Notes: a model not told the origin generated them from the letters alone. Shown: positions 1-55,500, counted from the stretch's first letter. The stretch: DNA of 64,000 nt from an uncultured Candidatus Actinomarina sp. (GCA_902615855.1 CACMQN010000002.1:66460-130459); one strand, 5' to 3'. Translations and numbers: made by a program.

Positions 1-1566
1 GGACAGGTTATTATCACTCCAGATGCTAAATTATTGGTTGCTGATTCAGATAACGATAGAGTTCTTGTTTGGACAAATTTTCCACAAACATCTGGTCAAG
101 CTGCAGATTATGCAATACCAATAACAAATTATGTAAGCATGAATAATTCTTGGCCTTGGGGAGTCTGGTCAGATGGTAACAAAACTATCGTAACTGCAAC
201 TGTTTCTGGAACAATATTAATTTGGAACAGTTTCCCTGGTTCAAACACACCACCAGATGTTGTATTAACATCGAATCAGATAGGCACACCAAGATCAATA
301 TTATCTAACGGAGATTACATAATGATTGGAGATGAAAATGCTAATGGCGAATGTGTAGGAGTTAATGGAAACAGGTCAACACATGTCTTTACCTCATGGC
401 CAACTGAATCACGAGATCCAGATGCTTGTGTGGACAATTGGATTTCAGGAATTATTCATGAAAATAAAATATATTCAATACCTGCTGGAGGTGAGTCGCT
501 CTACTTTTGGGACAATCTTTATACATCAACATCAGAATTAAAATCAAATGTTAAATTAGCTGAACCAGGTCAAGGTTCAAGATGGATGGGAGGTGATGAT
601 GGAGGGGCGGCAGTTGCAGGAAATAAGCTTTTTATTGCCGAATATAATGGAAATAGAATTTCTGTTTTTGATTCTTTACCTTCATCTCCATCAACTAAGC
701 CAAATTGGTCATTACTAACTGACAATACTGAAAGTCTTACTTTGTTAGAAGAAGATTTCATTATCCAAAATCCTGTAATTGAATCTGATGAAAATATATT
801 TGTTGTAAGCTCGGACTTCGATAGGTCATTGTCTGTATGGAAAAAAATACCAGGATCTACTGGTGCAAAACCAGACATTGTCTTCAGAAGGTTTGAGGAA
901 GGTCCTTGGGATAATACTTTCAATAATAAATCTTTATTCCTAGCCGCAGGAAAAAAAGTCTTTGGTTGGTTTGATTTTGAAAATAATCTAAATTCAGGTA
1001 ATTATTCATTTGATATGAATACATCATCAATTGGATCGATTAATTTTTCATCTTTGAGAGGTGTTGCATATAATGGAGAATTTTTTGCCCTAGGGGAAAC
1101 TGATAATAAAAATATTTATATTTGGAAAGGAATACCAGGATTGAATGATGAACCAGATTATATTATCCAAAATCCTGTTGGCGTTGGAAGAATAGATATG
1201 AATGAAGAATGGCTTGTTGTTTCTGCTTATCCAGGTGCAGGTAGTCCAGTTCATGTAATTAAACTAGCTAATTTAGATTCCGGGATTATGTTGTCAGTAC
1301 CTGGTAACGACGATTTTCCTCAGGGAGTAAGTATTAATGAGAAAGGATTTTTTATTGCCTTGCAAGGAAGTAATAAAGTTGTGGGCTGGTCAAGCGTTCA
1401 GGATGCTCTAAATGGATCATCCCCAACAATGTCATTTGGTGGAACAACCAATAAAACAAACTCTGGAACAAAAATGGCCTCAACTGTTCACTGGGATGGA
1501 TTTCATCTTTGGGTTGGAGAATTTAAATTTTCAAATAGATTGTTGGGATTTGCTCCTTCAAAATAA
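1..1566 (+). CDS. NHL-repeat/beta-propeller protein, 5'-truncated by the window edge
   Basis: Frame is open from base 1 (GQVIITPDAKLLVADSDNDRVLVW). Repeated units such as ADSDNDRVLVWTNFP, AEYNGNRISVFDSLP, SSDFDRSLSVWKKIP and GEFKFSNRLLGF. Confidence 0.7.
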   Translation, partial: GQVIITPDAKLLVADSDNDRVLVWTNFPQTSGQAADYAIPITNYVSMNNSWPWGVWSDGNKTIVTATVSGTILIWNSFPGSNTPPDVVLTSNQIGTPRSILSNGDYIMIGDENANGECVGVNGNRSTHVFTSWPTESRDPDACVDNWISGIIHENKIYSIPAGGESLYFWDNLYTSTSELKSNVKLAEPGQGSRWMGGDDGGAAVAGNKLFIAEYNGNRISVFDSLPSSPSTKPNWSLLTDNTESLTLLEEDFIIQNPVIESDENIFVVSSDFDRSLSVWKKIPGSTGAKPDIVFRRFEEGPWDNTFNNKSLFLAAGKKVFGWFDFENNLNSGNYSFDMNTSSIGSINFSSLRGVAYNGEFFALGETDNKNIYIWKGIPGLNDEPDYIIQNPVGVGRIDMNEEWLVVSAYPGAGSPVHVIKLANLDSGIMLSVPGNDDFPQGVSINEKGFFIALQGSNKVVGWSSVQDALNGSSPTMSFGGTTNKTNSGTKMASTVHWDGFHLWVGEFKFSNRLLGFAPSK

Positions 1567-1605
1567 GATGAAATATTAAAACTATTCCCAATTTATTTAA
1601 TTGAA

Positions 1606-2556
1606 TTAACCAGTTGACTCCACAGCCTCTGTAGTGACTTCTTCATCTGTTTCTAGAAGTCCACAGTCTTCGAGTACTTCGTCAGTGTTTCCGCCACCAA
1701 ATACAACTCTCTCAAAAACCACAACCGCGTAAATCTCATCTTCAGTAAGTTTTCCTGCAAATCCAGGCATTCCACCTATTGATACTTTATTCTCTGCTCC
1801 ATACGCCGGTCCAACTTCGGCCTGCCAACCTGCAGAGCCTAATTCAATCCACAATGCATGATCACTACAAGTTGGAAAAGTTGTATAAAGTTCTCCACCA
1901 GTAAAGGCAGGACCTACTCCTCCACCACCATTTACTCCATGACAACCAGCACATGCAGCAGCTCCAGAATAAACTTGTTGTCCAAGGGCAATATAATTTA
2001 TTGAGCTTGCAGATCCAACACCTTTTCCTTCAAATGCTGATCCATCACAGTTCACAGTTAATTGAGTTTTTCGATCAACATCTAAAATTCCACTCTCCCC
2101 ACATTCTTGTGTGGATGATGTATTGACTATCCCAATAACAATAAAAAGGGGAATAAGTACAAAGCTAAAATTTAGCCATCTCGGCAAAGATGTTTCAGCA
2201 TTTACCTTTATATCCAACGTCTTATTTGCGAAGGATACTTTTTGTATAATTTTTTTAATATTTGCTTGAGAAGATACTACAGATGAACTTTCCTTTTCAT
2301 CTTTTACAATTTCTGCAGACTCTTCTTTGGATTCTTCTATATCAGCTTTGTCTTCAACAGGTGGCGCCGGTTCTTCAGCAGGAGGTGCTTCTTCAGCAGG
2401 TTTTTCTGCAGAAGCTACACTCTCACCTCCAGCCCATGATTGTAAAACTTCATCAACTGTTCTTCCAGAAGCTTCAGCTCTAGCTTCAGCAGATCGTTGC
2501 ACCAACGACTCTGGTGCATTTAATAATTCAGCAACTTTACTTAAGAGTTCACTCAT
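1606..2556 (-). CDS. Membrane-anchored monoheme cytochrome c with the duplicated N-terminal module
   Basis: CAGCH heme motif, GGGGVGPAF, distal MPGF, one TM helix. N-terminus is nearly identical to that of the 2549..3361 gene. Confidence 0.85.
   Translation of the reverse strand: MSELLSKVAELLNAPESLVQRSAEARAEASGRTVDEVLQSWAGGESVASAEKPAEEAPPAEEPAPPVEDKADIEESKEESAEIVKDEKESSSVVSSQANIKKIIQKVSFANKTLDIKVNAETSLPRWLNFSFVLIPLFIVIGIVNTSSTQECGESGILDVDRKTQLTVNCDGSAFEGKGVGSASSINYIALGQQVYSGAAACAGCHGVNGGGGVGPAFTGGELYTTFPTCSDHALWIELGSAGWQAEVGPAYGAENKVSIGGMPGFAGKLTEDEIYAVVVFERVVFGGGNTDEVLEDCGLLETDEEVTTEAVESTG
2359..2556. repeat. 198-bp direct repeat, copy 1 (5' end of the cytochrome c gene)
   Basis: Matches 3164..3361 at offset 805 with two mismatches (2365/3170 and 2549/3354). 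Confidence 0.95.
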
Positions 2557-3361
2557 TTGTACTTCCTAAAGATAATAAATAAGTTATTAAATAATCTAAA
2601 TCTTGATTACTTAGGAAATTTACTGATGGATGAGGTATATCTTCCTTTACAGAAGATGGATCAATTAAATACTCTTTTAGCCAATCTGCATCGTTTGTTG
2701 GTTCTCTTGTTCCAAGAGTTGATAAATCGGGAGCTAACCTCAAAAGGCCTGTATTTTGAATGAGGTTTTTATTGGCAAATCTATTTTTTAATATTTTTCC
2801 ATTTTGTGAATCAGGTATGAGAATTCTTACATTCTGTGTATGACAGGACTGACAATTTAATTGGTTATAGACAATTGCTCCATTTAATATTTCTTCACTT
2901 ACCCGAACAGAATTATTTAATGATTGTAAGACCACCTCTTCACTTTGTTGTTTTGGTATTGAGAAAGCAAATAGGTATGTAAATATAACTACTCCAATCA
3001 CACCAGCAATAAAACCTAGAGAGCTTTCTTTCTTTATTTCAATGTTTTCTTCTTCAATTAAAACCTCTGTAGACATTTCAGAAATAGTTTCTTCAACTAC
3101 AATTGATAAATCTTCTGTTGATTCCTCTTCTTCCTCATCTGATGTAGTTACAGGTTCATCCGTAGGTGGTGCCGGTTCTTCAGCAGGAGGTGCTTCTTCA
3201 GCAGGTTTTTCTGCAGAAGCTACACTCTCACCTCCAGCCCATGATTGTAAAACTTCATCAACTGTTCTTCCAGAAGCTTCAGCTCTAGCTTCAGCAGATC
3301 GTTGCACCAACGACTCTGGTGCATTTAATAATTCAGCAACTTTACTTAAGAGTGCACTCAT
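2549..3361 (-). CDS. CcoO/FixO-like (cbb3 oxidase subunit II) cytochrome c, divergent
   Basis: GAIVY..CQSCHTQNVR...RLAPDLSTLG...DW...YLIDP resembles the CcoO pattern G..IY..GC..CHSQ.IR...R.GPDL..VG...DW...HL..P. Confidence 0.8.
   Translation of the reverse strand: MSALLSKVAELLNAPESLVQRSAEARAEASGRTVDEVLQSWAGGESVASAEKPAEEAPPAEEPAPPTDEPVTTSDEEEEESTEDLSIVVEETISEMSTEVLIEEENIEIKKESSLGFIAGVIGVVIFTYLFAFSIPKQQSEEVVLQSLNNSVRVSEEILNGAIVYNQLNCQSCHTQNVRILIPDSQNGKILKNRFANKNLIQNTGLLRLAPDLSTLGTREPTNDADWLKEYLIDPSSVKEDIPHPSVNFLSNQDLDYLITYLLSLGSTNE
3164..3361. repeat. 198-bp direct repeat, copy 2 (5' end of the CcoO-like gene)
   Basis: Matches 2359..2556 with two mismatches. Confidence 0.95.
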
Positions 3362-4761
3362 ACTGGAAGCTCCTCTTCAGTAAGTTCAATTGTTTCTGCT
3401 TCTGTAATTTCTCCATTTACTATCGCCTTGACGACTGAAATGAAAAACAACAGAAATGGCAGAAGTAATGTCAAAGATAAAAACATATTTAGCGTTAAAG
3501 GAGTACTGATTAGTGACCACAATAAACCGAACCCTTCACCATAGATTGTTGGGTTTCCTGCATTGGCACCAGCATTCCATGAGTAACCAGAAATAATTCC
3601 GATTAAAGCATTAGAAAATAATGTTAAAGACACCACAAGTTTTAATAGAAAACTAGTTAAAGATTCAAGCCTTGAAAATTTAACTTCTCTTCCAAAGATT
3701 TTAGGAATCAAATAATAAACAAATGAGATAGTAATTAATATTGCACTGAAAACATACCCATATCTAATTGCTATCTCAAAATTTGTAAGACTCAATATAG
3801 GAATGATATTTGAGAGCGAGGACACTATTTGAAAGATATTTGTTATAACAAATATTCCAAACGAGAAACTTATAAGACTATAAATAACTTTATTCTCGTC
3901 AATTCTCGTTGAAACCGTTCTGAAGAAATTTACAGCTATAGCAAGCACTGGGAGAGACAAACTTATAGACAAGTAAAGAGATATATTTTCTATCCAATTT
4001 GGCAATACAGAACCAAAGTAAAATTTAAAATTTGACCAAGGAATGAGAAACAAGAATCCCCAAAATCCAATAGATCCCAATGTTTTACTGTACAACGTAG
4101 CATTTATACCTTTTGTAATCATGAAATGAAGTAATGATAGAAATACGAACGAATATCCAACATATATATGTGTTGAAACATACATTGAATTAATGAAAAA
4201 ATTGTCGCTAAATACGACAAAATCAGCTCTATAAATTAGAAGTGATATCAAATAAAAAATACTTGCACCAAAAAGATACTGACTACTAACAAAGAGAGAA
4301 GCTTCTTTTTTGGCCAATATATTTAGAATAACGAGTCCAACAAAGGCAAAAAATATTAAGATTTTAAAAATTAATGTATAACTAGTGTTCCCAAAGAACA
4401 AAAAACTATCAGGAAATAATATTCCTAATAATAGATCGAGTGACTCCAATCCGATAACTCCCAATGCAGTTAGAAAAAAAATTGGGAATATTATTAATTT
4501 TCTTCCAAGTGTTTTTGGTAATAAGTAAACAGTCAAAAACACAATTAAAAATGAAAGCATCAGATTGTAAGTTATATGGTTATTTAGTTTTTCTAAATAT
4601 CCACTATTGAGAAAACTATTTTGAGGGAGTATGGCTGCAAAAATGAAATAAGCTTCTTTTGTTAATGCAACAGTTCCTAAAAGAAGGAAAAAAAGTGGAG
4701 TTAAAACAATAAAAAATTTTGAAAACGCTTGTTCATTTTTTGGAAAAATTTTTATTCTCAT
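3358..4761 (-). CDS. CcoN-like heme-copper oxidase subunit I homolog lacking the metal-ligand histidines
   Basis: About 12 TM helices. LYSKTLGSIGFWGFLFLIPW...LPNW and YYLIPKIFGRE align by eye with CcoN YS.RL...HFW.....W..PHH....LPDW and YYL.PKL.GRE. Lies directly upstream of the CcoO-like gene. Confidence 0.65.
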   Translation of the reverse strand: MRIKIFPKNEQAFSKFFIVLTPLFFLLLGTVALTKEAYFIFAAILPQNSFLNSGYLEKLNNHITYNLMLSFLIVFLTVYLLPKTLGRKLIIFPIFFLTALGVIGLESLDLLLGILFPDSFLFFGNTSYTLIFKILIFFAFVGLVILNILAKKEASLFVSSQYLFGASIFYLISLLIYRADFVVFSDNFFINSMYVSTHIYVGYSFVFLSLLHFMITKGINATLYSKTLGSIGFWGFLFLIPWSNFKFYFGSVLPNWIENISLYLSISLSLPVLAIAVNFFRTVSTRIDENKVIYSLISFSFGIFVITNIFQIVSSLSNIIPILSLTNFEIAIRYGYVFSAILITISFVYYLIPKIFGREVKFSRLESLTSFLLKLVVSLTLFSNALIGIISGYSWNAGANAGNPTIYGEGFGLLWSLISTPLTLNMFLSLTLLLPFLLFFISVVKAIVNGEITEAETIELTEEELPV

Positions 4762-4930
4762 TAATTTAAAAAGTAAGTACTCAATTTGACTTTACTATTA
4801 AACCATAGAAATTACTCCAATAAAATTAGTAATTTTTTGAAAAAGTTGGGTTATAAAATTTATAATATCTGGGTAATCCTTGATAGAATAGATATTGAAG
4901 GTTTTGAGTAAATAACGTGTTGAGGGAAAC

Positions 4931-5524
4931 TTGTTAAATTTTATATTTATTAACCGATACAAAATCGGAGTTGCTTTAATTTTTGCTGGAGTAGGTGGCA
5001 TAACAATTGGAGTAATTATTGCACATTTCGCTGGATTTCCAGAAGGCGAAGTAATCGATTATTTTAATTGGATGCCTAGGGGCTGGCTAATGCAAACCAT
5101 TGGACAACTCATTGCTTTTGGTGCAGGTCAATTTCTATTGATTGGAATGGCAATGCTTGCATGGCAAGATTCTGAATTAACTTGGGCTAGAGCAACATAT
5201 CTGGCATTTCTCAGTTGGATACAATTTGCACTTATATTTGGTGTATTACCTTCTGAGTGGTTAAACCTTTCTCAAGGACCTCTTGAATGGACAAACCAAA
5301 GAGAGTTTATCAACTTTCCTCCAATTTTATTTTTAGGTAACGAAATAGGAATGAGCCTCGGAGCTCTGAAAGACATTATTCAACTTGGTATATCAGGTGG
5401 AGCATTAGTGACAGCTTTTGTAGTAGGATATCTAATTCAAGATATCAACGAAGCAAAAGAAAGAGGAAAAACTAGAGTTTCTGATTACGGAAAACAAGTC
5501 GTGAAGGTAGGTGCTGATGGCTAA
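4931..5524 (+). CDS. Uncharacterised 4-TM membrane protein, first gene of the Rieske/cytochrome b operon
   Basis: Hydrophobic ORF with TTG start after GAGGG; overlaps the ferredoxin gene. Confidence 0.7.
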   Translation: MLNFIFINRYKIGVALIFAGVGGITIGVIIAHFAGFPEGEVIDYFNWMPRGWLMQTIGQLIAFGAGQFLLIGMAMLAWQDSELTWARATYLAFLSWIQFALIFGVLPSEWLNLSQGPLEWTNQREFINFPPILFLGNEIGMSLGALKDIIQLGISGGALVTAFVVGYLIQDINEAKERGKTRVSDYGKQVVKVGADG

Positions 5525-5966
5525 ATCAGAAGTACTTATTGAAATGCCTGAATTTGAAAAAAAATACAATTTAGCCATGGTCGAAGCCGAAAAGGTTTCT
5601 TCAAGGGTAAGGCCAAAACAGTTTTTGCATATTGATGAGGCAGAGTGCATTTTATGTGAAGGATGTGTAGATATCTGTCCATGGAAATGTATACATTACT
5701 TATCAACAGAAGCAATAGAAGACTCTATAAACGTTGAAGCTCCTAACATGGAAGATAATGAAACGGGATTCTTTGTTGTTGATGAAGAAGCTTGTACAAG
5801 ATGTGCATTATGTGTTGATAGGTGCCCAACAGGGGTTATATCGCTTGGTAAGTTTGCTGGATCATTAGCAGATGCGGCAATAAAGAATGGTGTTTATGAA
5901 TCTCCATGGGATGAAGACTCAGGAGAGAGAAGTGACCGTCATGGCTATATATATGGAAGACTTTAA
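5517..5966 (+). CDS. 2x[4Fe-4S] dicluster ferredoxin
   Basis: CILCEGCVDICP and CTRCALCVDRCP motifs. ATG 5517 preferred over GTG 5511. Confidence 0.9.
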   Translation: MAKSEVLIEMPEFEKKYNLAMVEAEKVSSRVRPKQFLHIDEAECILCEGCVDICPWKCIHYLSTEAIEDSINVEAPNMEDNETGFFVVDEEACTRCALCVDRCPTGVISLGKFAGSLADAAIKNGVYESPWDEDSGERSDRHGYIYGRL

Positions 5967-6745
5967 TGAAAAACGAAAAAATTAAATTTAGAGATCGATT
6001 AAAAGATATTAGTTCAGGTCTCGGAGAGTCTTTAAAAGAAAGTACGCTTTGGGGAAGTATTTTTAGACCAGGATCTCCATTTAGAAAAGGTTATTCAGAT
6101 AGTCCAAGAAATAGATCATATGTTGTAATGAATAACGTCTTGTATCATCTCCATCCAGTAAAAGTAAAAAGACATGGTGTCAGATTGTCATATACGCTTT
6201 GCTTGGGAGGATTAAGCTTCTTTACATTTATTGTTTTGACTATAACTGGTATTTGGTTGATGTTTTATTTTAGACCTACAGAAATGGCATATGTTGATAT
6301 TCAATCATTACAGACAAGTATTGCGTTTGGATCTCTAGTTAGAAATATGCACAGGTGGGCTGCGCACATTATGGTGTTAGTAGTGTTTCTTCACATGTCC
6401 CGAGTTTTTTATCATGGGGCGTACAAAGCACCTAGAGAGTTTAACTGGGTGATTGGAGTTATATTACTACTTTTAACACTCCTTCTTTCATTTACTGGTT
6501 ATCTACTTCCATGGGATCAGTTAGCTATTTGGGCTGTGACAGTGGGTGGAAATATGGCAGGTTATACTCCCGTTTTTGGTGCTCAAGTTAAGTTTGCGTT
6601 ATTTGCAGGACTAGAGGCTACTGAAGCAACACTTCTTCGATTTTATGTTTTACATGTTCTATTTTTTCCTTTCATCATTGTAATTTTTATGGCAATTCAT
6701 TTTTGGCGAGTAAGAAAGGATGGAGGAATCTCAGGTCCTCTATAG
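5966..6745 (+). CDS. qcrB: Cytochrome b N-terminal subunit (cytochrome b6-like, split)
   Basis: YTLCLGG, RNMHRWAAH, VFLHMSRVF, PREFNW, FTGYLLPWDQ, RFYVLHV, IHFWRVRKDGGISGPL C-terminus. Confidence 0.92.
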   Translation: MKNEKIKFRDRLKDISSGLGESLKESTLWGSIFRPGSPFRKGYSDSPRNRSYVVMNNVLYHLHPVKVKRHGVRLSYTLCLGGLSFFTFIVLTITGIWLMFYFRPTEMAYVDIQSLQTSIAFGSLVRNMHRWAAHIMVLVVFLHMSRVFYHGAYKAPREFNWVIGVILLLLTLLLSFTGYLLPWDQLAIWAVTVGGNMAGYTPVFGAQVKFALFAGLEATEATLLRFYVLHVLFFPFIIVIFMAIHFWRVRKDGGISGPL

Positions 6746-6752
6746 ACATACT

Positions 6753-7577
6753 ATGGTTGATATTCCAGAACATTTATTATTAAAAACTGCTGAAGCAAGA
6801 GCCAAGGCCTTAGGTATTTCAGTTGAACAAGCACTGGCAGAAATGAGAGGTGAAGCTGAGCCTACCAAAATTGAGAAAGAACCAGATGTTATTGAAGTTA
6901 CTCAAATTGAAGTAGAAGTCAAAGAAACACCGGCACCAGCAGCTGAAGTCAAAGAAACACCGGCACCAGCAGCTGTAGTAAAAGAAGCACCGGCTCCTGC
7001 ACCTGAAAAATCAAACGGACAAGTACCTACTGAAGTAGATTTTGCACCTGAGACAAAAGTAACACAAAGGTTGCTTACGGTCGTCAAAGCAAAGCCAATA
7101 CAGAAACCAACTTCTGAACCAGTTGATAAAGTAAACACATGGCCTCATTTAATGTTGCCAGAGTTTATTTCATTAATGGCAATGACAGCATTTTTGATTT
7201 TTATAAGTGCAATTTTGCAAGCTCCTTTATTAGAAGAAGCAAATCCAAACATTACACCAAACCCTGCAAAAGCACCATGGTACTTTTTAGGACTACAAGA
7301 ATTACTTTCCTATTGGGATCCACAGATCGCAGGTGTGATGATACCTCTTCTAATTGGTGTTGCAGCATTTATGGCAATTCCATATATTGATCGAAATAAA
7401 GAAAATAAACCTTCAAAAAGAAAATATGCAATAATGTTGTGGACCTTTTTTCTGGCAGGTGCTGGAACTTTAAGTCTTATCGGTATTTTATTTAGAGGCC
7501 CAGGTTGGAACTGGACGTATCCATGGATTGATGGTGTATGGTTCGATGACTTACTTGACTGGGTCCATTTCGAATGA
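6753..7577 (+). CDS. Rieske/cytochrome b complex subunit IV (PetD-like) with N-terminal extension
   Basis: WPHL...PLLEEANPNITPNPAKAPWYFLGLQELL (PEWY-equivalent) and PYIDR. ATG 6753 follows the cytochrome b stop. Confidence 0.88.
   Translation: MVDIPEHLLLKTAEARAKALGISVEQALAEMRGEAEPTKIEKEPDVIEVTQIEVEVKETPAPAAEVKETPAPAAVVKEAPAPAPEKSNGQVPTEVDFAPETKVTQRLLTVVKAKPIQKPTSEPVDKVNTWPHLMLPEFISLMAMTAFLIFISAILQAPLLEEANPNITPNPAKAPWYFLGLQELLSYWDPQIAGVMIPLLIGVAAFMAIPYIDRNKENKPSKRKYAIMLWTFFLAGAGTLSLIGILFRGPGWNWTYPWIDGVWFDDLLDWVHFE
6915..7004 (+). repeat. 30-bp in-frame tandem repeat (EVKETPAPAA x2 plus a degenerate third unit)
   Basis: gaagtcaaagaaacaccggcaccagcagct occurs exactly twice, followed by a diverged copy. 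Confidence 0.9.
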
Positions 7578-8452
7578 CTCTTGTTGAGCTTTCATTTATT
7601 GCAATTGCATTTATTGGCGTATTTGGTGTGATTGGAATTGCAGCTGTAGTAACTGGAAGAACCCCAAAAGCTGTAACAAAAAGATTAAATTGGAAAAAGA
7701 ATTTAGATAAAAAAGCTTTAAAAGTTGATAAATCTCAAACAAATTTTTTAGCTCCAGATGAACCAGATTTTGAAGAAGAAAACGTATCTGAAGATAATGA
7801 ACAAGATGAAGAAGAAATTCAAACCGATGGATCCATTGCAATAAAAGAAGAAATAATTTATGAAGAAATTTCAGAAGAAGAAGCTGGAATGACTCGTAGA
7901 CAATTTTTGGGTAAAGCCCTTGGAATCACGTTTGGAGCATTTGCTGGTATCCAATTAATTTCTTGGCTTGGATTCTTTTATCCAAAAGTTTCCGGAGGTT
8001 TTGGATCTAAAATAGATGCTGGAAGAGTTGATGACCTTAAAGACCAAATTTTCCAATCAGACGGTTCAGTTATACCTGCATTCATTCCAGAAGCAAGAGC
8101 TTATGTTTTACCATTTGATGACAATGGTAACTCTCAGTTTTCTGATAGTGGAACTATTGCAGACGGTTTAGTTGCTGTTTATCAACGATGCGTTCATTTA
8201 GGTTGTCGTGTTCCATGGTGCAACACCTCTCAAGGATTTGAATGTCCATGTCATGGTTCAAAATACAACATGGTTGGTGAGTATTACGCAGGTCCTGCTC
8301 CAAGGAACTTAGATAGGTTTATTGTAAGTGTTTCAGGAGGAAAATTAATTATCGACACAGGATCAGTTATAGAATCACCTCGAGCTGATGGTATGTCTGT
8401 GAAATATCCACAAGGTCTTTCATGTATTACAATCGCTGAGACTGAGGAATAA
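7574..8452 (+). CDS. qcrA: Rieske [2Fe-2S] subunit
   Basis: CVHLGC and CPCHGSKY boxes, GPAPRNL, internal TRRQFL twin-arginine motif. Confidence 0.93.
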   Translation: MTLVELSFIAIAFIGVFGVIGIAAVVTGRTPKAVTKRLNWKKNLDKKALKVDKSQTNFLAPDEPDFEEENVSEDNEQDEEEIQTDGSIAIKEEIIYEEISEEEAGMTRRQFLGKALGITFGAFAGIQLISWLGFFYPKVSGGFGSKIDAGRVDDLKDQIFQSDGSVIPAFIPEARAYVLPFDDNGNSQFSDSGTIADGLVAVYQRCVHLGCRVPWCNTSQGFECPCHGSKYNMVGEYYAGPAPRNLDRFIVSVSGGKLIIDTGSVIESPRADGMSVKYPQGLSCITIAETEE

Positions 8453-8454
8453 AT

Positions 8455-9879
8455 ATGAACAGCTCGTTTTTCATAACATTAATCGCCTTAGCAGTAGTTG
8501 GTGCAATTGCTTATTTTTCTGCAGTTGGTTTCCGTGGTGCAGGAAAAATCAAAAAAGTACCTAGAAATTTACAAAAATATCTTCCAGATGATGAATTAGA
8601 AACTACTCATCTTGATAAAACATTATCAATAGCAGTTGTGCTAGCTTCGTTACTTACAATTATGATTCCACTTTATTATCTCGGCGAACCAGCTAGACAA
8701 GAAAGTTTTGTAGAAGAGTTTGATGACGTTTCAGTTGAAAGAGGGCACCATCTTTACGAAGAGTTTGGGTGCGGAAACTGCCATGGAGTAGATGGAAGTG
8801 GTGGAGCTGCTTCATATGTTGAAAAAAGAAGTGGTGTAAGTGTTACATGGTCAGCCCCTGCAATAAACAATGTGTTTTATAGATATGATGATGAAGAAGT
8901 TAGGTATTGGCTAATATACGGTAGAGCAAACTCACCTATGCCAGCTTGGGGTCTAAAAGGCGGAGGCCCAATGAACGATGGACAGCTTGACGACTTGATA
9001 GAGTACTTGCATTATTTTCAAATTCCACAAAATGAAGAACTTCAACAAATTGAACAAAATATAAACTCATCTTTGCTACGAATTGAAAATTCTGATTTAC
9101 AGGTTGAAAGTGAAATTGAAAAACAAAATGACCTTATCAATGACATTAAGGCAGCTCCAGAAAGATTACCCGTAGCAATTGAAGCCGTTGAAATTGTATC
9201 TGCGATACTAGCAAGGCAGAATGGAATCGATACTGATGAAGACGGGCTTTTTGATTCAGTAGAAACAGATATATCAGCTTATAGTGAAAGTGTTGCAGAT
9301 GTTTTGGGTACTGCAATTTTAAATCTAAATCCAGATGAAGAAGAATCAACTCCAGGAAGAAAAGACGCATCAGTTGTTAGGGGATACCTTTCTGATCTTG
9401 AAACGAGTGTTATTAATTTAGGAATCCTTACTGATGGCTATGACAAATTTATGGATGAAGCTGAAAAAGGTTTAGCATTTCTTGAAAATGCCTATGAACA
9501 AAAATTATGGCTTATTGATTTCCAAAACATTGCTGATTCAACCTTTGATGGAGACTATGATAAAGCAACAAGAGCAGTAGGAATATTTAATGCATATTGT
9601 GCGAGGTGTCACACTGCTGGTTATTCTGCAGGAGCTGCATATACAAAAATCATTGGTTCTGGAGGCTTGGGGCCTGCATTAAAAGGTGGACGAGTAAATA
9701 TTCAATTTAAAGAGAGAGCCGACTTTGTTGATTTTATTATTAACGGTTCTGTCAATGGTAAAGGCTATGGAGTCAATGGAGTCGGTGGAGGAAAAATGCC
9801 AGGATTTGGTGCGGTACTTCCACAGTCAGATATAGAATTGGTTATAGATTATTTGAGAGGAATGACACCTGATGCGTGA
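8455..9879 (+). CDS. Membrane-anchored diheme cytochrome c
   Basis: CGNCH...MPAW and CARCH...MPGF; two N-terminal TM helices. Confidence 0.88.
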   Translation: MNSSFFITLIALAVVGAIAYFSAVGFRGAGKIKKVPRNLQKYLPDDELETTHLDKTLSIAVVLASLLTIMIPLYYLGEPARQESFVEEFDDVSVERGHHLYEEFGCGNCHGVDGSGGAASYVEKRSGVSVTWSAPAINNVFYRYDDEEVRYWLIYGRANSPMPAWGLKGGGPMNDGQLDDLIEYLHYFQIPQNEELQQIEQNINSSLLRIENSDLQVESEIEKQNDLINDIKAAPERLPVAIEAVEIVSAILARQNGIDTDEDGLFDSVETDISAYSESVADVLGTAILNLNPDEEESTPGRKDASVVRGYLSDLETSVINLGILTDGYDKFMDEAEKGLAFLENAYEQKLWLIDFQNIADSTFDGDYDKATRAVGIFNAYCARCHTAGYSAGAAYTKIIGSGGLGPALKGGRVNIQFKERADFVDFIINGSVNGKGYGVNGVGGGKMPGFGAVLPQSDIELVIDYLRGMTPDA

Positions 9880-10240
9880 AATAATGAGAACCCTTTTGTC
9901 ATCTAATTTGACATTTACTGGAATTTTCCTTTTTGTTTTTTTTGTTCTCTCATTTTTTGGATCAACTTTTATTTTGAACGCAACAAATTTAGGTAGAAGA
10001 CTTGGCTTCCTTGTTGTTGGAGCCGCAACTTTTGGATGGCTAGTTATTAATTCTTTTCTGTTTATACTTTATGCTCCAAGGGGTCCAGCGCCATCCTCAA
10101 TAGATGGTCTAAATGCTCTAGAAATCAGAATTATTCCAATAACTTATTTTGCTGGATCTTTAATACTTTTTATTATGTTCATGCTTGCTTTAAATAGATA
10201 CGAACAAGAAGAAAAAAACACAGAAGAAACAAATAGTTAA
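9872..10240 (+). CDS. Small 3-TM membrane protein, last gene of the operon
   Basis: Hydrophobic ORF overlapping the cytochrome c stop. Confidence 0.7.
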   Translation: MREIMRTLLSSNLTFTGIFLFVFFVLSFFGSTFILNATNLGRRLGFLVVGAATFGWLVINSFLFILYAPRGPAPSSIDGLNALEIRIIPITYFAGSLILFIMFMLALNRYEQEEKNTEETNS

Positions 10241-10281
10241 TCTCGATTAGCGTATATCCCTTTAATGAATAGAATTAAAAC

Positions 10282-11235
10282 ATGGAATTTATAATATCAA
10301 TTGTAAGAAGCGTAATATTATTCGGCCTTCTGATCTTTATTGTATTTAGAATATTCAGAATTCTAAGACCATTCGAGAAAGGATTAGTTGAAAGATTTGG
10401 TAAGTACAACCGTGAGGCTACAGCAGGACTCAATATTGTAATACCAGGGATTGAAAAATTAATCATTGTAGATATGAGGGAACAAGTTATTGACGTTCCA
10501 CCACAAGAAGTTATTACAAAAGACAACGTCACAATTACTGTTGACGCTGTGATTTACTACGAACCTACAGATCCAAAAAAACTTGTTTATAACGTTGGAG
10601 ATTTTATTACCGCGGCTACAAAATTAGCACAAACAAATTTAAGAAATGTAGTTGGTGACCTTGAATTAGATGCTGCCTTAACCTCTAGAGAGACTATCAA
10701 TACATCTTTAAAATTGATACTAGACGAAGCAACAGATAAGTGGGGTACTAGAGTTGTGCGTGTCGAAATTCAAAGAATTGATCCACCTCAAGATGTTCAA
10801 GATGCAATGAATAAAGTTATGAAAGCTGAGAGAGACAGAAGAGCAGCTGTTACAGAAGCTGAAGGTGAAAAAAGAGCTGCAATTTTGACAGCTGAGGGCG
10901 AAAGAGAATCTCAAATTCTAAGCGCTCAAGGAGAGGCCGAGGCATTGAAACAAGTTGCGGACGCAGAAAAATATGAAAGAGTAGTTAATGCAGAAGGTGA
11001 AGCTGAAGCCATCAGACAAGTATTCAATGCAATTCACGAAGGTGACCCAACTAACGACTTAATTGCTATTAAATATCTCGAATCTTTAGAAAAAGTGGCA
11101 AATGGAAAAGCAACAAAAATATTTTTACCAGCTGATTTATCAGCAACTTTGGGAAGTATTGGTGCAATCTCAGAATTATTTAAAGATGATGATGAAAGTT
11201 CAAAAGGAAAAAAAAGCACTAAAAAAGAAAAGTAA
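10282..11235 (+). CDS. SPFH/stomatin-like (QmcA-type) protein
   Basis: [43 protein letters not shown]. Confidence 0.92.
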
Positions 11236-41763: not shown

Positions 41764-42748
41764 AAATATATTCCTTACTGGCTCTACAGGAATTTTAGGA
41801 AAGCCATTATTAAGGAAGCTTGTAAATGAAGGGCATACTGTTTACGCATTATCTAGAAATAAAATACATCATGATTTTCTAAACTCCAATAAGGCAAAAA
41901 TCATAAATGGTGATTTAATTAGTGACGACATTTATGAACAACTTAAAGACAAGTCTATCGAAGCAATATTCCATGTTGCTGGTATTAATAAAAAATGTCA
42001 GAAAGATTCTTCAAGTATGTTTAGGACAAACATTGAAGGTACAAAACAAATGTTGGAATTAGGTAATAGATTAAGTATTGAAAAGTTTGTATACACTTCC
42101 TCTGCAACAACCCTTGGTGAGCAAAAGGGAACTATTGGAAATGAGGATTCAATACACAGAGGAACATTTTTATCTGAATATGAAGAATCAAAATATTTGG
42201 CAGAACAAGTCGCCTTCGCCTTTAGTAAAGAGTTTGAATTCGTGTCTATCAATCCGTCTTCTGTTCAAGGACCAGGAAGAAATTCTGGAACTGCAAAAAT
42301 TTTAATATCAACATTAAATAAAAAATTTCCTCCATTAATTAAAAGTACTATATCCGTTGTTGATATTGATGATTGTACAGAAGGACATTACCTAGGTTTA
42401 ATGAAGGGAAAGAATAATGAAAGATATGTACTTAATAGTTTTAGATTAGATATTGAGACACTAATTCAAAATCTAAAGTTGATTACAAATTGGGATGGTT
42501 CTCCAATATATATCTCAAAACAATTTCTTACTGGATTAGGTCCACTTTTTGATATTTTTGGAAAATTCACTTCCCTAGGGGGAGTTATATGTGGAGAAAC
42601 AATTAGAGTTCTCACCCATGGACATTTATATGATGGTCAGAAAGCTAAAAGAGAACTTGGTTTGAGCTACACCTCAATTGAAGATTTTATTTCCAAAACT
42701 ATTTCTTGGTTAAACACTGAAAAATTAACAAAATTAGATATCAATTAA
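41753..42748 (+). CDS. NAD-dependent epimerase/dehydratase (dihydroflavonol reductase-like)
   Basis: TGSTGILG, FHVAG, YEESK, NPSSVQGPG. Confidence 0.85.
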   Translation: MKYKNIFLTGSTGILGKPLLRKLVNEGHTVYALSRNKIHHDFLNSNKAKIINGDLISDDIYEQLKDKSIEAIFHVAGINKKCQKDSSSMFRTNIEGTKQMLELGNRLSIEKFVYTSSATTLGEQKGTIGNEDSIHRGTFLSEYEESKYLAEQVAFAFSKEFEFVSINPSSVQGPGRNSGTAKILISTLNKKFPPLIKSTISVVDIDDCTEGHYLGLMKGKNNERYVLNSFRLDIETLIQNLKLITNWDGSPIYISKQFLTGLGPLFDIFGKFTSLGGVICGETIRVLTHGHLYDGQKAKRELGLSYTSIEDFISKTISWLNTEKLTKLDIN

Positions 42749-42749
42749 T

Positions 42750-43490
42750 ATGAACGATTTCAATAATCTGCTTGATATAGTTTCACAATTAAGAAAAGAA
42801 TGTCCATGGGACAAAGAGCAAACACATGAAAGCTTGGCAAAGCATCTGATTGAGGAATCATACGAATTGTTAGATACCTTAACTAATTTAAATGATTCAA
42901 CTGAATCACTTAATAACTTTAAAGATGAGTTAGGAGATCTTTTACTCCAAATACTTTTACATTCAGAAATTGCCTCTGAAAATAATTATTTTTCGATAAT
43001 TGAAGTGATAAATTCTTTACAAAAAAAATTAATACAACGTCACCCCCATGTTTTTGACAAAAAAAACTTGAATTCATCTGATGAAGTTGAAAAACAATGG
43101 GAGGAAATTAAAAAAGAAGGTAATGATTCTATATTTGATGATATCAATACGAAACTTCCTCCATTAAATACAGCATTTAAAGTACAACGAAAAGCAAAGA
43201 CCCTTAATTTAAGCTACAAAAATTATGATGAGGCTTTGGATGATTTGATTTCCGAAATAAATGAACTTAAAGAAGCAACAACCTTAGAAGATAGAAAGTC
43301 AGAACTTGGCGATGTATATTTTTCACTAATTAATGTTTCTAGATATTTAGAGGCTGATCCTGAAATTGAGTTAAAAAAATCTATTCAAACTTTTATAAAC
43401 AGGGCAAAATATGTTGAAAAACATATGCATAAAGAAACAGATATTAGTGCTCTTTGGCAAGAAGCTAAGAAAAATCAAATAGATTCGTAA
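42750..43490 (+). CDS. mazG: Nucleoside triphosphate pyrophosphohydrolase MazG
   Basis: CPWDKEQT, EESYE, ELGDLLLQ, RHPHVF. Confidence 0.93.
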   Translation: MNDFNNLLDIVSQLRKECPWDKEQTHESLAKHLIEESYELLDTLTNLNDSTESLNNFKDELGDLLLQILLHSEIASENNYFSIIEVINSLQKKLIQRHPHVFDKKNLNSSDEVEKQWEEIKKEGNDSIFDDINTKLPPLNTAFKVQRKAKTLNLSYKNYDEALDDLISEINELKEATTLEDRKSELGDVYFSLINVSRYLEADPEIELKKSIQTFINRAKYVEKHMHKETDISALWQEAKKNQIDS

Positions 43491-54837: not shown

Positions 54838-55500
54838 ATGGAAGAACTAACATACCGACTTTTCATGGTGGCAACTGTGGGAATGCTTGCAGGAACAGTA
54901 TTTTTACTTGCTTCATCAAGAGAAGTTAAACCAGAACACAGACGTGGTGTTTATATTTCAGCACTTGTCTGTGGTATTGCATGGTATCACTATCAAAAGA
55001 TGGGTGCATCTTGGGAAAGTGGAGCATACGATACAGGGTTAAGATACGTTGACTGGGTCTTAACTGTTCCTTTGATGTTCGTCGAAGTCCTTGCAGTTAC
55101 AAGAAAGGGTGCCGCATACAATGAGGCAGTCCGTAACTGGGGAATTGCAGCAACAGTAATGATTGGTGCAGGATACTACGGTGAAACATCAGCAGCAGGA
55201 AGCAACGAATATTGGACAGGTTTCGTAATTGCTATGGCAACTTACGTCTGGCTAATGAGAAATCTTCAAGCTGAAGGAGAAGGTCTTAAAGGTGATGAAG
55301 CAGCAGCTTTTGAAAATATTAAGAACCTAATCCTTGTAGGTTGGATAATTTATCCTTTGGGATACATTGCACCTGTAGTAGGAGACTTTGATGCTATTAG
55401 AGAAGTTCTATACACAGTCGCTGACATAATTAATAAGGTCGGACTTGGTGTACTAGTACTACAAATGGCTCGAGTTAAGTCAGGAGAAAAAGTTTCGTAA
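54838..55500 (+). CDS. Microbial rhodopsin, DTE proton-pump motif (MACR-like)
   Basis: Seven TM helices; RYVDWVLTVPLMFVE (D/T/E), GWIIYP, DIINKVG retinal-binding Lys; AAGGAG SD. Confidence 0.95.
   Translation: MEELTYRLFMVATVGMLAGTVFLLASSREVKPEHRRGVYISALVCGIAWYHYQKMGASWESGAYDTGLRYVDWVLTVPLMFVEVLAVTRKGAAYNEAVRNWGIAATVMIGAGYYGETSAAGSNEYWTGFVIAMATYVWLMRNLQAEGEGLKGDEAAAFENIKNLILVGWIIYPLGYIAPVVGDFDAIREVLYTVADIINKVGLGVLVLQMARVKSGEKVS

Follow-up and report, generated by a model that had tools for sequence, protein, structure and literature searches.

A ligand-less cbb3-type oxidase subunit divergently linked to an APWY-type b6c complex in marine Candidatus Actinomarina

What is the role of an oxidase subunit that has lost every residue with which it could bind heme or copper, and that is encoded beside a cytochrome bc complex? 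This question is raised by a gene cluster at positions 1606–10240 of a 64,000-nucleotide stretch of DNA (GCA_902615855.1, CACMQN010000002.1:66460-130459; hereafter the window, in whose numbering positions are given) from an uncultured Candidatus Actinomarina sp., a marine member of the Acidimicrobiia with a genome of 1.07 Mb (82.8% complete). One arm of the cluster encodes a protein resembling CcoN, subunit I of the cbb3 oxidases, and the other a split cytochrome b complex (b6c). Our best explanation, in which our confidence is evenly balanced, is that these are two coupled respiratory modules, and that the dead CcoN scaffolds two cytochromes working with the b6c complex, probably towards the caa3 oxidase encoded elsewhere in the genome. 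From gene content, ligand loss, fold, selection, conserved linkage and motif distribution, all of which were observed, we infer the physical association of the parts, the direction of electron flow and the role of a shared motif.

As the preliminary description of this DNA had claimed, the cluster consists of two compact operons that diverge from a 169-bp AT-rich spacer, and its open reading frames (ORFs) and families were recovered by ORF calling and family scans. The genes of the left arm, on the minus strand, overlap (by 4 nt between the CcoN-like and CcoO-like genes and by 8 nt between the CcoO-like and cytochrome c genes), and nearly all those of the right arm, on the plus strand, overlap or abut. 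Transmembrane (TM) counts of the small membrane proteins, the cytochromes and the ferredoxin are hydrophobic segments reported by a hydropathy script. The features are as follows.

1606–2556 (−), membrane-anchored monoheme cytochrome c in the CcoP position, with N-terminal motif, acidic linker and 1 TM helix
2549–3361 (−), CcoO-like monoheme cytochrome c, with N-terminal motif, acidic linker, 1 TM helix and 1 CxxCH
3358–4761 (−), CcoN-like protein, 467 aa, ~12 TM helices; PF00115 at 42.5 bits (cut-off 34.8)
4762–4930, divergent spacer, 169 bp, AT-rich
4837–4866 (+), promoter-like (sigma-70-like) site, TTGAAA-18-TATAAT, 11/12 matches, the top score within 1400–10500
4931–5524 (+), 4-TM protein of no known family; 14-nt overlap with the ferredoxin gene
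5511–5966 (+), 2x[4Fe-4S] ferredoxin; Fer4 families, conserved N- and C-terminal extensions
5966–6745 (+), cytochrome b6, the N-terminal part of a split cytochrome b; PF00033 at 145.6 bits
6720–7577 (+), subunit IV; PF00032, N-terminal motif, P/E/A-rich linker, probable true start ATG 6753
7574–8452 (+), Rieske iron-sulfur subunit; PF00355, long N-terminal extension
8455–9879 (+), diheme cytochrome c; PF13442 and PF00034, CxxCH at residues 106 and 382
9872–10240 (+), 3-TM protein of no known family, the last gene of the operon; 3 hydrophobic segments
2410–2556 (−), 3215–3361 (−) and 6753–6884 (+), copies of a shared 3-helix mini-domain

A 67-aa ORF inside the spacer (4798–5001, −) matched no family and was taken as spurious. 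Directly downstream of the b6c operon lies an SPFH/Band 7 gene (10282–11235, +), which is found in the same place in four relatives from the genus (L015, L016, L017, L022) and was not detected in the fetched loci of other families. A microbial rhodopsin gene (54859–55470, +; PF01036, 108 bits) is located in the same window ~45 kb downstream of the cluster.

Given that the CcoN-like protein scored ~42 bits against the ccoN equivalog model TIGR00780, whose cut-off is 583, we assessed its identity through sequence comparison and structure prediction. Its closest PDB match by phmmer was the cbb3 CcoN 3mk7_A. The AlphaFold2 (AF2) model (predicted local distance difference test, pLDDT, 80.9; predicted template-modelling score 0.87) matched 8smr_E, the CcoN of the Pseudomonas aeruginosa bc1-cbb3 supercomplex, in Foldseek with a template-modelling score of 0.85 (E 5.6e-12), and cbb3 CcoN chains (0.79–0.85) ranked ahead of B-type, A-type and nitric oxide reductase subunits. 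In the phmmer alignment the CuB histidine pair of 3mk7_A was placed opposite K246 and F247, whilst the HxH of TM helix 10 was lost, one position being deleted and the other being R333; that the aligned residues in 3mk7_A are histidines was seen in the alignment itself. The assignment of individual histidines of the Pseudomonas stutzeri cbb3 CcoN to heme b, heme b3 and CuB is one that we take as given. All six canonical positions (two for the low-spin heme, one for the high-spin heme and three for CuB) have been lost, and the whole protein holds three histidines in total. It thus has the 12-helix fold and the sequence homology of a heme-copper subunit I without the six histidine ligands and, as judged from its sequence and predicted model, is a C-type (cbb3) subunit I without any cofactor ligands. 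Lacking the hemes and CuB, it should no longer be able to reduce O2 by known chemistry.

This loss is not confined to one protein. Identity to the CcoN-like protein of the window is 15–19% for homologs belonging to five other families of the class, and when nine homologs from across the class were aligned no histidine was invariant, the invariant columns being G, W and T. The proposal of a non-catalytic oxidase homolog was therefore borne out by heme-copper chemistry, as every ligand position is lost and no histidine is invariant class-wide. The cores of 49 syntenic homologs contained 0–9 histidines, one homolog having none. A profile built from the nine class-wide sequences was searched against 1.84 billion cluster representatives, and matched 2749 proteins at E ≤ 1e-3 and 504 at E ≤ 1e-30. 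Among the best 150 of the 2749 matches, all four sites were without histidine in 86 and the full set was present in 27; the top 42 all lacked the HH of TM helix 7 and the HxH of TM helix 10, the first full set appearing at rank 43. The ligand-less family amounts to hundreds of 50%-identity clusters from several classes. In a sample of the phylum, 32 of 301 genomes matched the CcoN-like protein at E ≤ 1e-10 (300 sampled genomes plus the window's own, with one unpublished genome, G117, in the tally), and among the examples fetched from outside the class, ligand-less forms occurred in three families (f23, f25, f18) and ligand-complete C-type oxidases in three others (f17, f37, f39).

Could the protein, instead of being a passive scaffold, still be an enzyme or a transporter with an unconventional site, which might use non-histidine ligation or conduct protons or ions? 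In the nine-sequence alignment, motifs of the outer face (GYSWxAGAN..GEG, for one) are conserved, many structural positions (G, P, W, R and Y) are common to ligand-less proteins and true, ligand-complete C-type oxidases, and purifying selection on the gene is strong (see below). However, the lost ligands have no conserved His, Cys, Met, Asp or Glu in their place, and nothing beyond the G, W and T columns is invariant in the nine homologs, one relative managing with no core histidine; among 108 ligand-less members, conservation at ≥75% is confined to G, P, W, R, Y, L, F and T residues and a single E. We consider such a site very unlikely.

The other two genes of the left arm have kept their heme. 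The CcoO-like protein fell just below the cut-off of the FixO family PF02433 (28.6 bits, cut-off 29.6), a label that its close relatives bear in precomputed annotation; it also matched NF011055, and scored 21.5 bits against TIGR00781 (cut-off 200.65). It has one hydrophobic segment and, at residue 170, a CxxCH. Its fusion to the CcoN-like protein was seen in 15 of 49 relatives, always with a CxxCH, and 38 of the 43 profile matches longer than 560 aa contained a CxxCH, that is, a fused CcoO. The third cytochrome matched PF00034 and PF13442 and has a single CxxCH, at residue 202; it matched the ccoP model TIGR00782 weakly (16 bits, cut-off 179.95) and is not a diheme protein. One CxxCH was kept in the CcoO-like protein and in the cytochrome c wherever the sequence was complete, and a divergent cytochrome c was present even at loci without a CcoN-like gene. 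The module had been described as cofactor-less; with a CxxCH retained in both cytochromes, this term fits the CcoN-like protein only.

With all catalytic ligands gone, the left arm might be the remnant of a decaying cbb3 operon without function. To examine this we surveyed the genus with the CcoN-like protein of the window as query, and 21 of 24 other genomes gave a match (43–98% identity). Two genomes had a damaged gene: one (G001) has a single in-frame TGA, and in a single-contig Actinomarina genome (G009) the gene breaks into two frames at about residue 217 (L017, G009:C1:1002467-1003862) whilst its neighbors are intact, which could be a homopolymer sequencing error or a real inactivation. 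Pairwise Nei-Gojobori ratios of nonsynonymous to synonymous substitution (dN/dS), with saturated pairs left out, were 0.05–0.12 for the CcoN-like gene, 0.09–0.24 for the CcoO-like gene (some values coming from 50–87 codons), 0.05–0.15 for the cytochrome c gene and 0.00–0.09 for the b6c genes. The left arm evolves 2–5 times faster than the right arm, which, with the two damaged genes, is what a remnant might show. Against this, the frame was open in 20 of the 22 genus genomes with a match (47–98% identity), the left-arm values (0.05–0.24) were not near 1, and the ligand-less family is spread over hundreds of clusters in several classes. Contigs from RNA libraries (Logan; four runs from four studies) covered both arms. 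They include pieces inside the CcoN-like gene (for example 3332–4077 and 4423–4777 in run X1), and parts of this gene had no contig cover in runs X6, X8 and X9, which is no sign of silence; such cover gives no transcript level, and DNA carry-over is possible. The left arm is under clear purifying selection and is not decaying, and a functionless remnant is extremely improbable.

The right arm is, from its sequence, an APWY-type split b6/subunit IV quinol:cytochrome c oxidoreductase with a CxGG (heme ci-type) motif. The residues H129, H143, H230 and H245 (the b-heme histidines) and C79 of C79-L-G-G are invariant in cytochrome b6; LCLGG was found in 80/80 b6 loci, the Qo motif APWY in subunit IV in 72/72 loci, and KAPWYFL in 8/8 seeds. 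The Rieske protein contains CVHLGC...CPCHGS and scored 76 bits with NF010001 (b6f iron-sulfur subunit). Split b6 and subunit IV, four histidines, the CxGG cysteine, APWY and the Rieske motifs are together the marks of the APWY clade. Against the NCBIfam equivalogs of a selenite/tellurite reduction operon, cytochrome b6 fell slightly short of ExtP (NF040969; 287.8 bits, cut-off 290), the ExtQ score was far too low (52.7, cut-off 150), and no Ext-type neighbors were seen around the cluster in the ORF calls and family scans. The actinobacterial QcrA, QcrB and QcrC models gave 28.2, 115.9 and 23.7 bits (cut-offs 275, 500 and 200), and the split cytochrome b sets the complex apart from the bcc-aa3 type with its unsplit QcrB, a distinction already drawn in the preliminary description. 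Relatives of subunit IV align from residue 11–12, and contigs from several RNA runs lack one base at 6750/6751 and one at 8454; both positions are intergenic if subunit IV starts at ATG 6753, so the deletions argue against the ORF start at 6720.

To this core are added a ferredoxin and two small membrane proteins. In eight homologs of the ferredoxin the two CxxCxxCxxxCP cluster motifs and the GYxYG tail are invariant, and the protein has no signal peptide, TM helix or hydrophobic segment. The 4-TM and 3-TM proteins matched no Pfam or NCBIfam family; the atlas neighbors of the former are hypothetical proteins of Actinomycetota. In relatives the 4-TM gene is kept upstream of the ferredoxin gene, and across the class the 3-TM gene is kept at the end of the operon. 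The diheme cytochrome c has two TM segments and an insert of ~180 aa between its heme domains.

To place the complex in the respiratory chain we took an inventory of intact heme-copper oxidases, as the preliminary description had proposed. Besides the CcoN-like gene, the window's genome and five further genomes of the genus (one of them a single contig) each have one cytochrome b locus and one true COX1 (~520 bits), and no cytochrome bd was found in the window's genome. The COX1 of the latter is caa3-type and belongs to an operon (G000:C4:38500-44263, G000 being the window's genome) for a CtaC to which a cytochrome c domain is fused, a 662-aa CtaD, CtaE and CtaF, followed by a 258-aa membrane protein (42379–43155), CtaG-like by position only, and finally by a 363-aa multi-TM protein of no Pfam family. 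Since the sole cytochrome b locus found stands beside a single caa3 oxidase, the complex must carry the forward flow from quinol to cytochrome c. At a contig start in another genome (L128, G010:C1:1-2540) we found a second, partial copy of cytochrome b6, subunit IV and Rieske genes, in which b6 is broken into two ORFs. This copy could be a duplicate produced by the assembly or a variant within the population, and the same may apply to a motif-bearing fragment of a gene with which contig C10 of the window's genome begins.

It had also been suggested that the locus serves ferredoxin-linked, cyclic or reverse electron flow in a cell with a light-driven proton pump. Low-potential electrons, for example from a 2-oxoacid:ferredoxin oxidoreductase (OFOR), would then enter the right arm on the negative (n) side near heme ci and pass to quinone, or the complex would run in reverse. 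The ferredoxin gene immediately precedes b6 wherever a locus has flank, its motifs and tail being invariant; the cysteine of CxGG is likewise invariant; the window contains the rhodopsin gene; and reverse operation of APWY complexes is proposed in the accessible part of Kao and Hunte 2014 (PMC4122944). In addition, the alpha subunit of an OFOR in the window's genome (G000:C7:219-2540; POR_N, PFOR_II) has a P/E/V-rich C-terminal repeat extension in which the 3-helix motif described below is embedded. However, this motif was not found at the OFOR alpha gene of G009 or G010, a contact between ferredoxin and heme ci is purely hypothetical, and as the only cytochrome b locus found in six genomes of a caa3 aerobe the complex is needed for forward quinol oxidation. 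Beyond the constant ferredoxin gene, our data neither back ferredoxin-linked or reverse flow nor rule against it. We regard it as rather unlikely; it would be an addition to the scaffold model, with which it is compatible.

Are the two arms linked beyond this genome? The divergent layout was the same at each of the ten loci that we retrieved around CcoN-like matches, which come from four genus members and from six genomes belonging to five other families. For a census that did not start from this gene, we anchored on cytochrome b6 and took the best 80 of 593 relatives, from species-representative genomes and all of them Acidimicrobiia-type records. In 49 of these loci a CcoN-like gene was divergently adjacent to the 4-TM/ferredoxin/b6 operon; 21 lacked it (with at least 2.5 kb of upstream flank), 8 had too little flank and 2 had another context. 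An arrangement that recurs in 49 of the 70 informative loci (those with and those without the gene) is not due to chance. The 21 loci without it come mostly from Acidimicrobiales, Microthrix/Microthrixaceae and Ilumatobacteraceae, with a few named only Actinomycetes or Actinomycetota, and have kept both the ferredoxin-b6c operon and a divergent cytochrome c; a search of 16 class genomes that lack the adjacent copy found none elsewhere in the genome. The b6c complex therefore works without the scaffold in this group. The accessory subunits (4-TM, 3-TM, diheme c) scored much lower at the loci without a CcoN-like gene, which is no evidence of co-evolution because the models were built only from CcoN-like loci and the groups belong to different lineages. 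Outside the class, a ferredoxin-b6 operon is found at a distance of 5–6 kb from four ligand-less CcoN homologs (two families), in divergent orientation; no bc genes lie within 8 kb of another homolog (L140), and one further homolog is on a contig too short to judge its neighbors. The claim of linkage thus stands for most informative loci and extends beyond the class, and fails for 21 of 70; the association of both arms is old and frequent, not obligatory. At two Ilumatobacteraceae loci (L093, L107) a cytochrome b6-like sequence had no ferredoxin, subunit IV, Rieske or cytochrome c matches nearby, and at L093 it lies inside a stop-free frame of ~2.9 kb.

The second observation that joins the arms is a motif of ~45 residues (consensus P-E-x-L-x-x-R-S-A-E-A-R-A-x-A-x-G-x-x-V-E-x-V-L), followed by a P/E/A-rich linker, of which the window's genome has six copies. 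Its carriers are both left-arm cytochromes, where it is near-identical, subunit IV, where it is recognisable, the 363-aa protein of the caa3 operon, which has it at its start, the OFOR alpha subunit and the gene cut at the start of contig C10. That one N-terminal motif occurs on proteins of both arms, as first noted, was therefore confirmed. Three genomes of relatives (G009, G010, G030) have it on subunit IV, the CcoO-like protein, the cytochrome c and the caa3-operon protein, whose orthologs there are 375–392 aa long. Of the 21 loci that lack a CcoN-like gene, 18 also have it, at lower scores, on subunit IV, on the divergent cytochrome c or on both. The AF2 model of the motif has three short helices (pLDDT 84.6). 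Neither Pfam (E up to 10) nor Foldseek (E ≤ 0.001) returned a match, and a PDB sequence search gave nothing better than E 0.27; likeness to the peripheral-subunit-binding domain of E2 enzymes was considered and was not backed by any search. In a search against longer proteins, the best 120 of 1462 matches were close relatives, so this was not a census of carriers. By analogy with the known topology of b6f, the domain would be cytoplasmic, as it lies ahead of the only TM helix in proteins that must have their heme c outside, and sits at the n-side N-terminus of subunit IV. A complex prediction of the ferredoxin with residues 1–60 of subunit IV, the motif being the partner, scored 0.01 and is not counted for or against binding. 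Tandem motifs, up to four copies with linkers, were seen on subunit IV or a left-arm cytochrome (L068, L077, L082 and other loci), which suggests multivalent binding. A 3-helix domain of no known family thus marks proteins of three respiratory modules.

These data bear on whether the left arm instead forms a cytochrome c complex of its own, in which a dead oxidase anchors an electron carrier or store, and shares with the right arm nothing but regulation via the common promoter region. The b6c operons that lack a CcoN-like gene (21 of 70 loci), the distance of 5–6 kb in other classes, the homolog without bc genes nearby and the faster evolution of the left arm would all be expected of such a complex. 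It accounts less well for divergent adjacency that is kept across families although CcoN-like identity is only 21–24%, or for the same cytoplasmic domain on subunit IV and both left-arm cytochromes, and no other heme acceptor is evident in a 1-Mb genome with one oxidase. We therefore regard a free-standing left arm as possible but unlikely.

Our preferred explanation, that of two coupled modules, would run as follows. An ancestral ccoNOP operon beside a bc operon lost its catalytic center, whilst the right arm is the organism's only quinol:cytochrome c oxidoreductase, extended by the ferredoxin and the two small membrane proteins. The CcoN-like protein would have been kept as a 12-helix membrane scaffold holding two membrane-anchored monoheme c-type cytochromes, whose hemes may form a short wire on the outer face, passing electrons from the diheme c of the b6c complex to the cytochrome c domain of caa3 within a supercomplex. 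The cytoplasmic 3-helix domain of subunit IV, the left-arm cytochromes and the caa3-operon protein may help to hold or organise the assembly. Several of the results above weigh against this explanation: the loci without the gene and its absence elsewhere in those genomes, the homolog away from bc genes, the faster evolution of the left arm, the frame break in G009 and the limits of contig cover. Furthermore, the need for an additional relay is not obvious, given that a cytochrome c domain is already fused to the caa3 CtaC. We hold our confidence at an even balance because physical contact is inferred and a large sister group lives without the scaffold. A bolder version, which we think decidedly unlikely, is that Acidimicrobiia, the very abundant marine Actinomarina among them, form a respiratory string with the dead cbb3 as structural bridge between b6c and caa3 and the 3-helix docking domain as the tie between the parts, low-potential electrons entering the quinone pool directly at b6c through the domain copy of the OFOR and the ferredoxin next to heme ci. 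It would give the ferredoxin-to-b6f route, whose part in cyclic electron flow has been a matter of long debate, a counterpart outside photosynthesis.

How much of this was already in print? In the accessible sections of Kao and Hunte 2014 (PMC4122944), a split cytochrome b is reported in one Acidimicrobidae genome (Ilumatobacter), the question of heme ci binding by CxGG is raised, and no APWY complex is said to have been characterised in vitro or in vivo by 2014. The claim that the cluster matches no known complex must be narrowed accordingly: the split APWY/CxGG cytochrome b of Acidimicrobiia was described before, whilst the link to a dead CcoN, the ferredoxin and the motif appear undescribed. 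Relative to the same sections, the operon-encoded ferredoxin and the two small family-less membrane proteins are new. In the literature covered (subscription journals mostly outside it, and supplementary tables aside), we came across no account of a CcoN without ligands, of its association with an APWY complex, of a ferredoxin subunit or of the motif, and prior mention is possible. A recent genomic paper on a sister order, in its accessible part, lists just 'Complex III' and 'Complex IV' (PMC12008989), and the available portion of an acid-mine-drainage study assigns cbb3-type oxidases to a series of metagenome-assembled genomes (MAG 3-10), listed before its Bacteroidota section (PMC8357290), which may or may not be the present genes. 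One source names the CcoO-like protein 'cbb3-type cytochrome oxidase cytochrome c subunit'. If cbb3 annotations rest on the ligand-less family, the high-affinity, low-oxygen respiration inferred from them in the class is wrong. As the only bc complex of an abundant ocean aerobe, an APWY-type complex with a ferredoxin subunit also makes the direction of flow and the n-side chemistry testable.

Compared with known systems, the right arm is closest to the APWY clade, with which, on the accessible sections of PMC4122944, it shares the split cytochrome b, APWY, CxGG and an ExtP score near the cut-off. It differs in having LCLGG for the usual WCMGG, an operon ferredoxin, 4-TM and 3-TM subunits, an N-terminal domain on subunit IV and a dead CcoN, and in being an aerobe's sole bc complex rather than one of several. 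With b6f and the b6c complexes of Bacillus and heliobacteria it has in common a four-helix b6, a three-helix subunit IV, a heme ci-type cysteine and a Rieske protein that matches b6f PetC models best. Unlike these it has a diheme c for cytochrome f or a fused c, APWY for PEWY/PDWY, no photosystem and an extra ferredoxin subunit. The actinobacterial bcc-aa3 systems (QcrCAB-CtaCDEF; 7qho, 8ovc) belong to the same phylum and likewise use a diheme c for a soluble carrier, and an A-type oxidase operon is present elsewhere in the window's genome too, but their QcrB is unsplit and their Qcr models score far below cut-offs here. To our knowledge, no oxidase-homolog scaffold is present in the bcc-aa3 structures 7qho and 8ovc.

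The left arm resembles the CcoNOP of cbb3 oxidases and the bc1-cbb3 supercomplexes (3mk7, 8smr, 6xkw) in its N-O-P order, overlapping genes, CcoN fold, CcoO-like protein with one TM helix and one heme c, and a bc-type complex as neighbor, as in the solved bc1-cbb3 supercomplexes. It differs in that the six histidine ligands are missing, the third subunit is monoheme and both cytochromes have an extra cytoplasmic domain. On our reading, a dead oxidase subunit kept under selection across several actinomycetotal classes is an enzyme turned structural part of the respiratory chain. In mitochondrial bc1, the peptidase-like core proteins are dead homologs kept as structural subunits; they are of another fold and lineage, and for the CcoN-like protein membership in an assembly is deduced, but they share with the CcoN-like protein an enzyme fold that selection has kept after the catalytic residues were lost.

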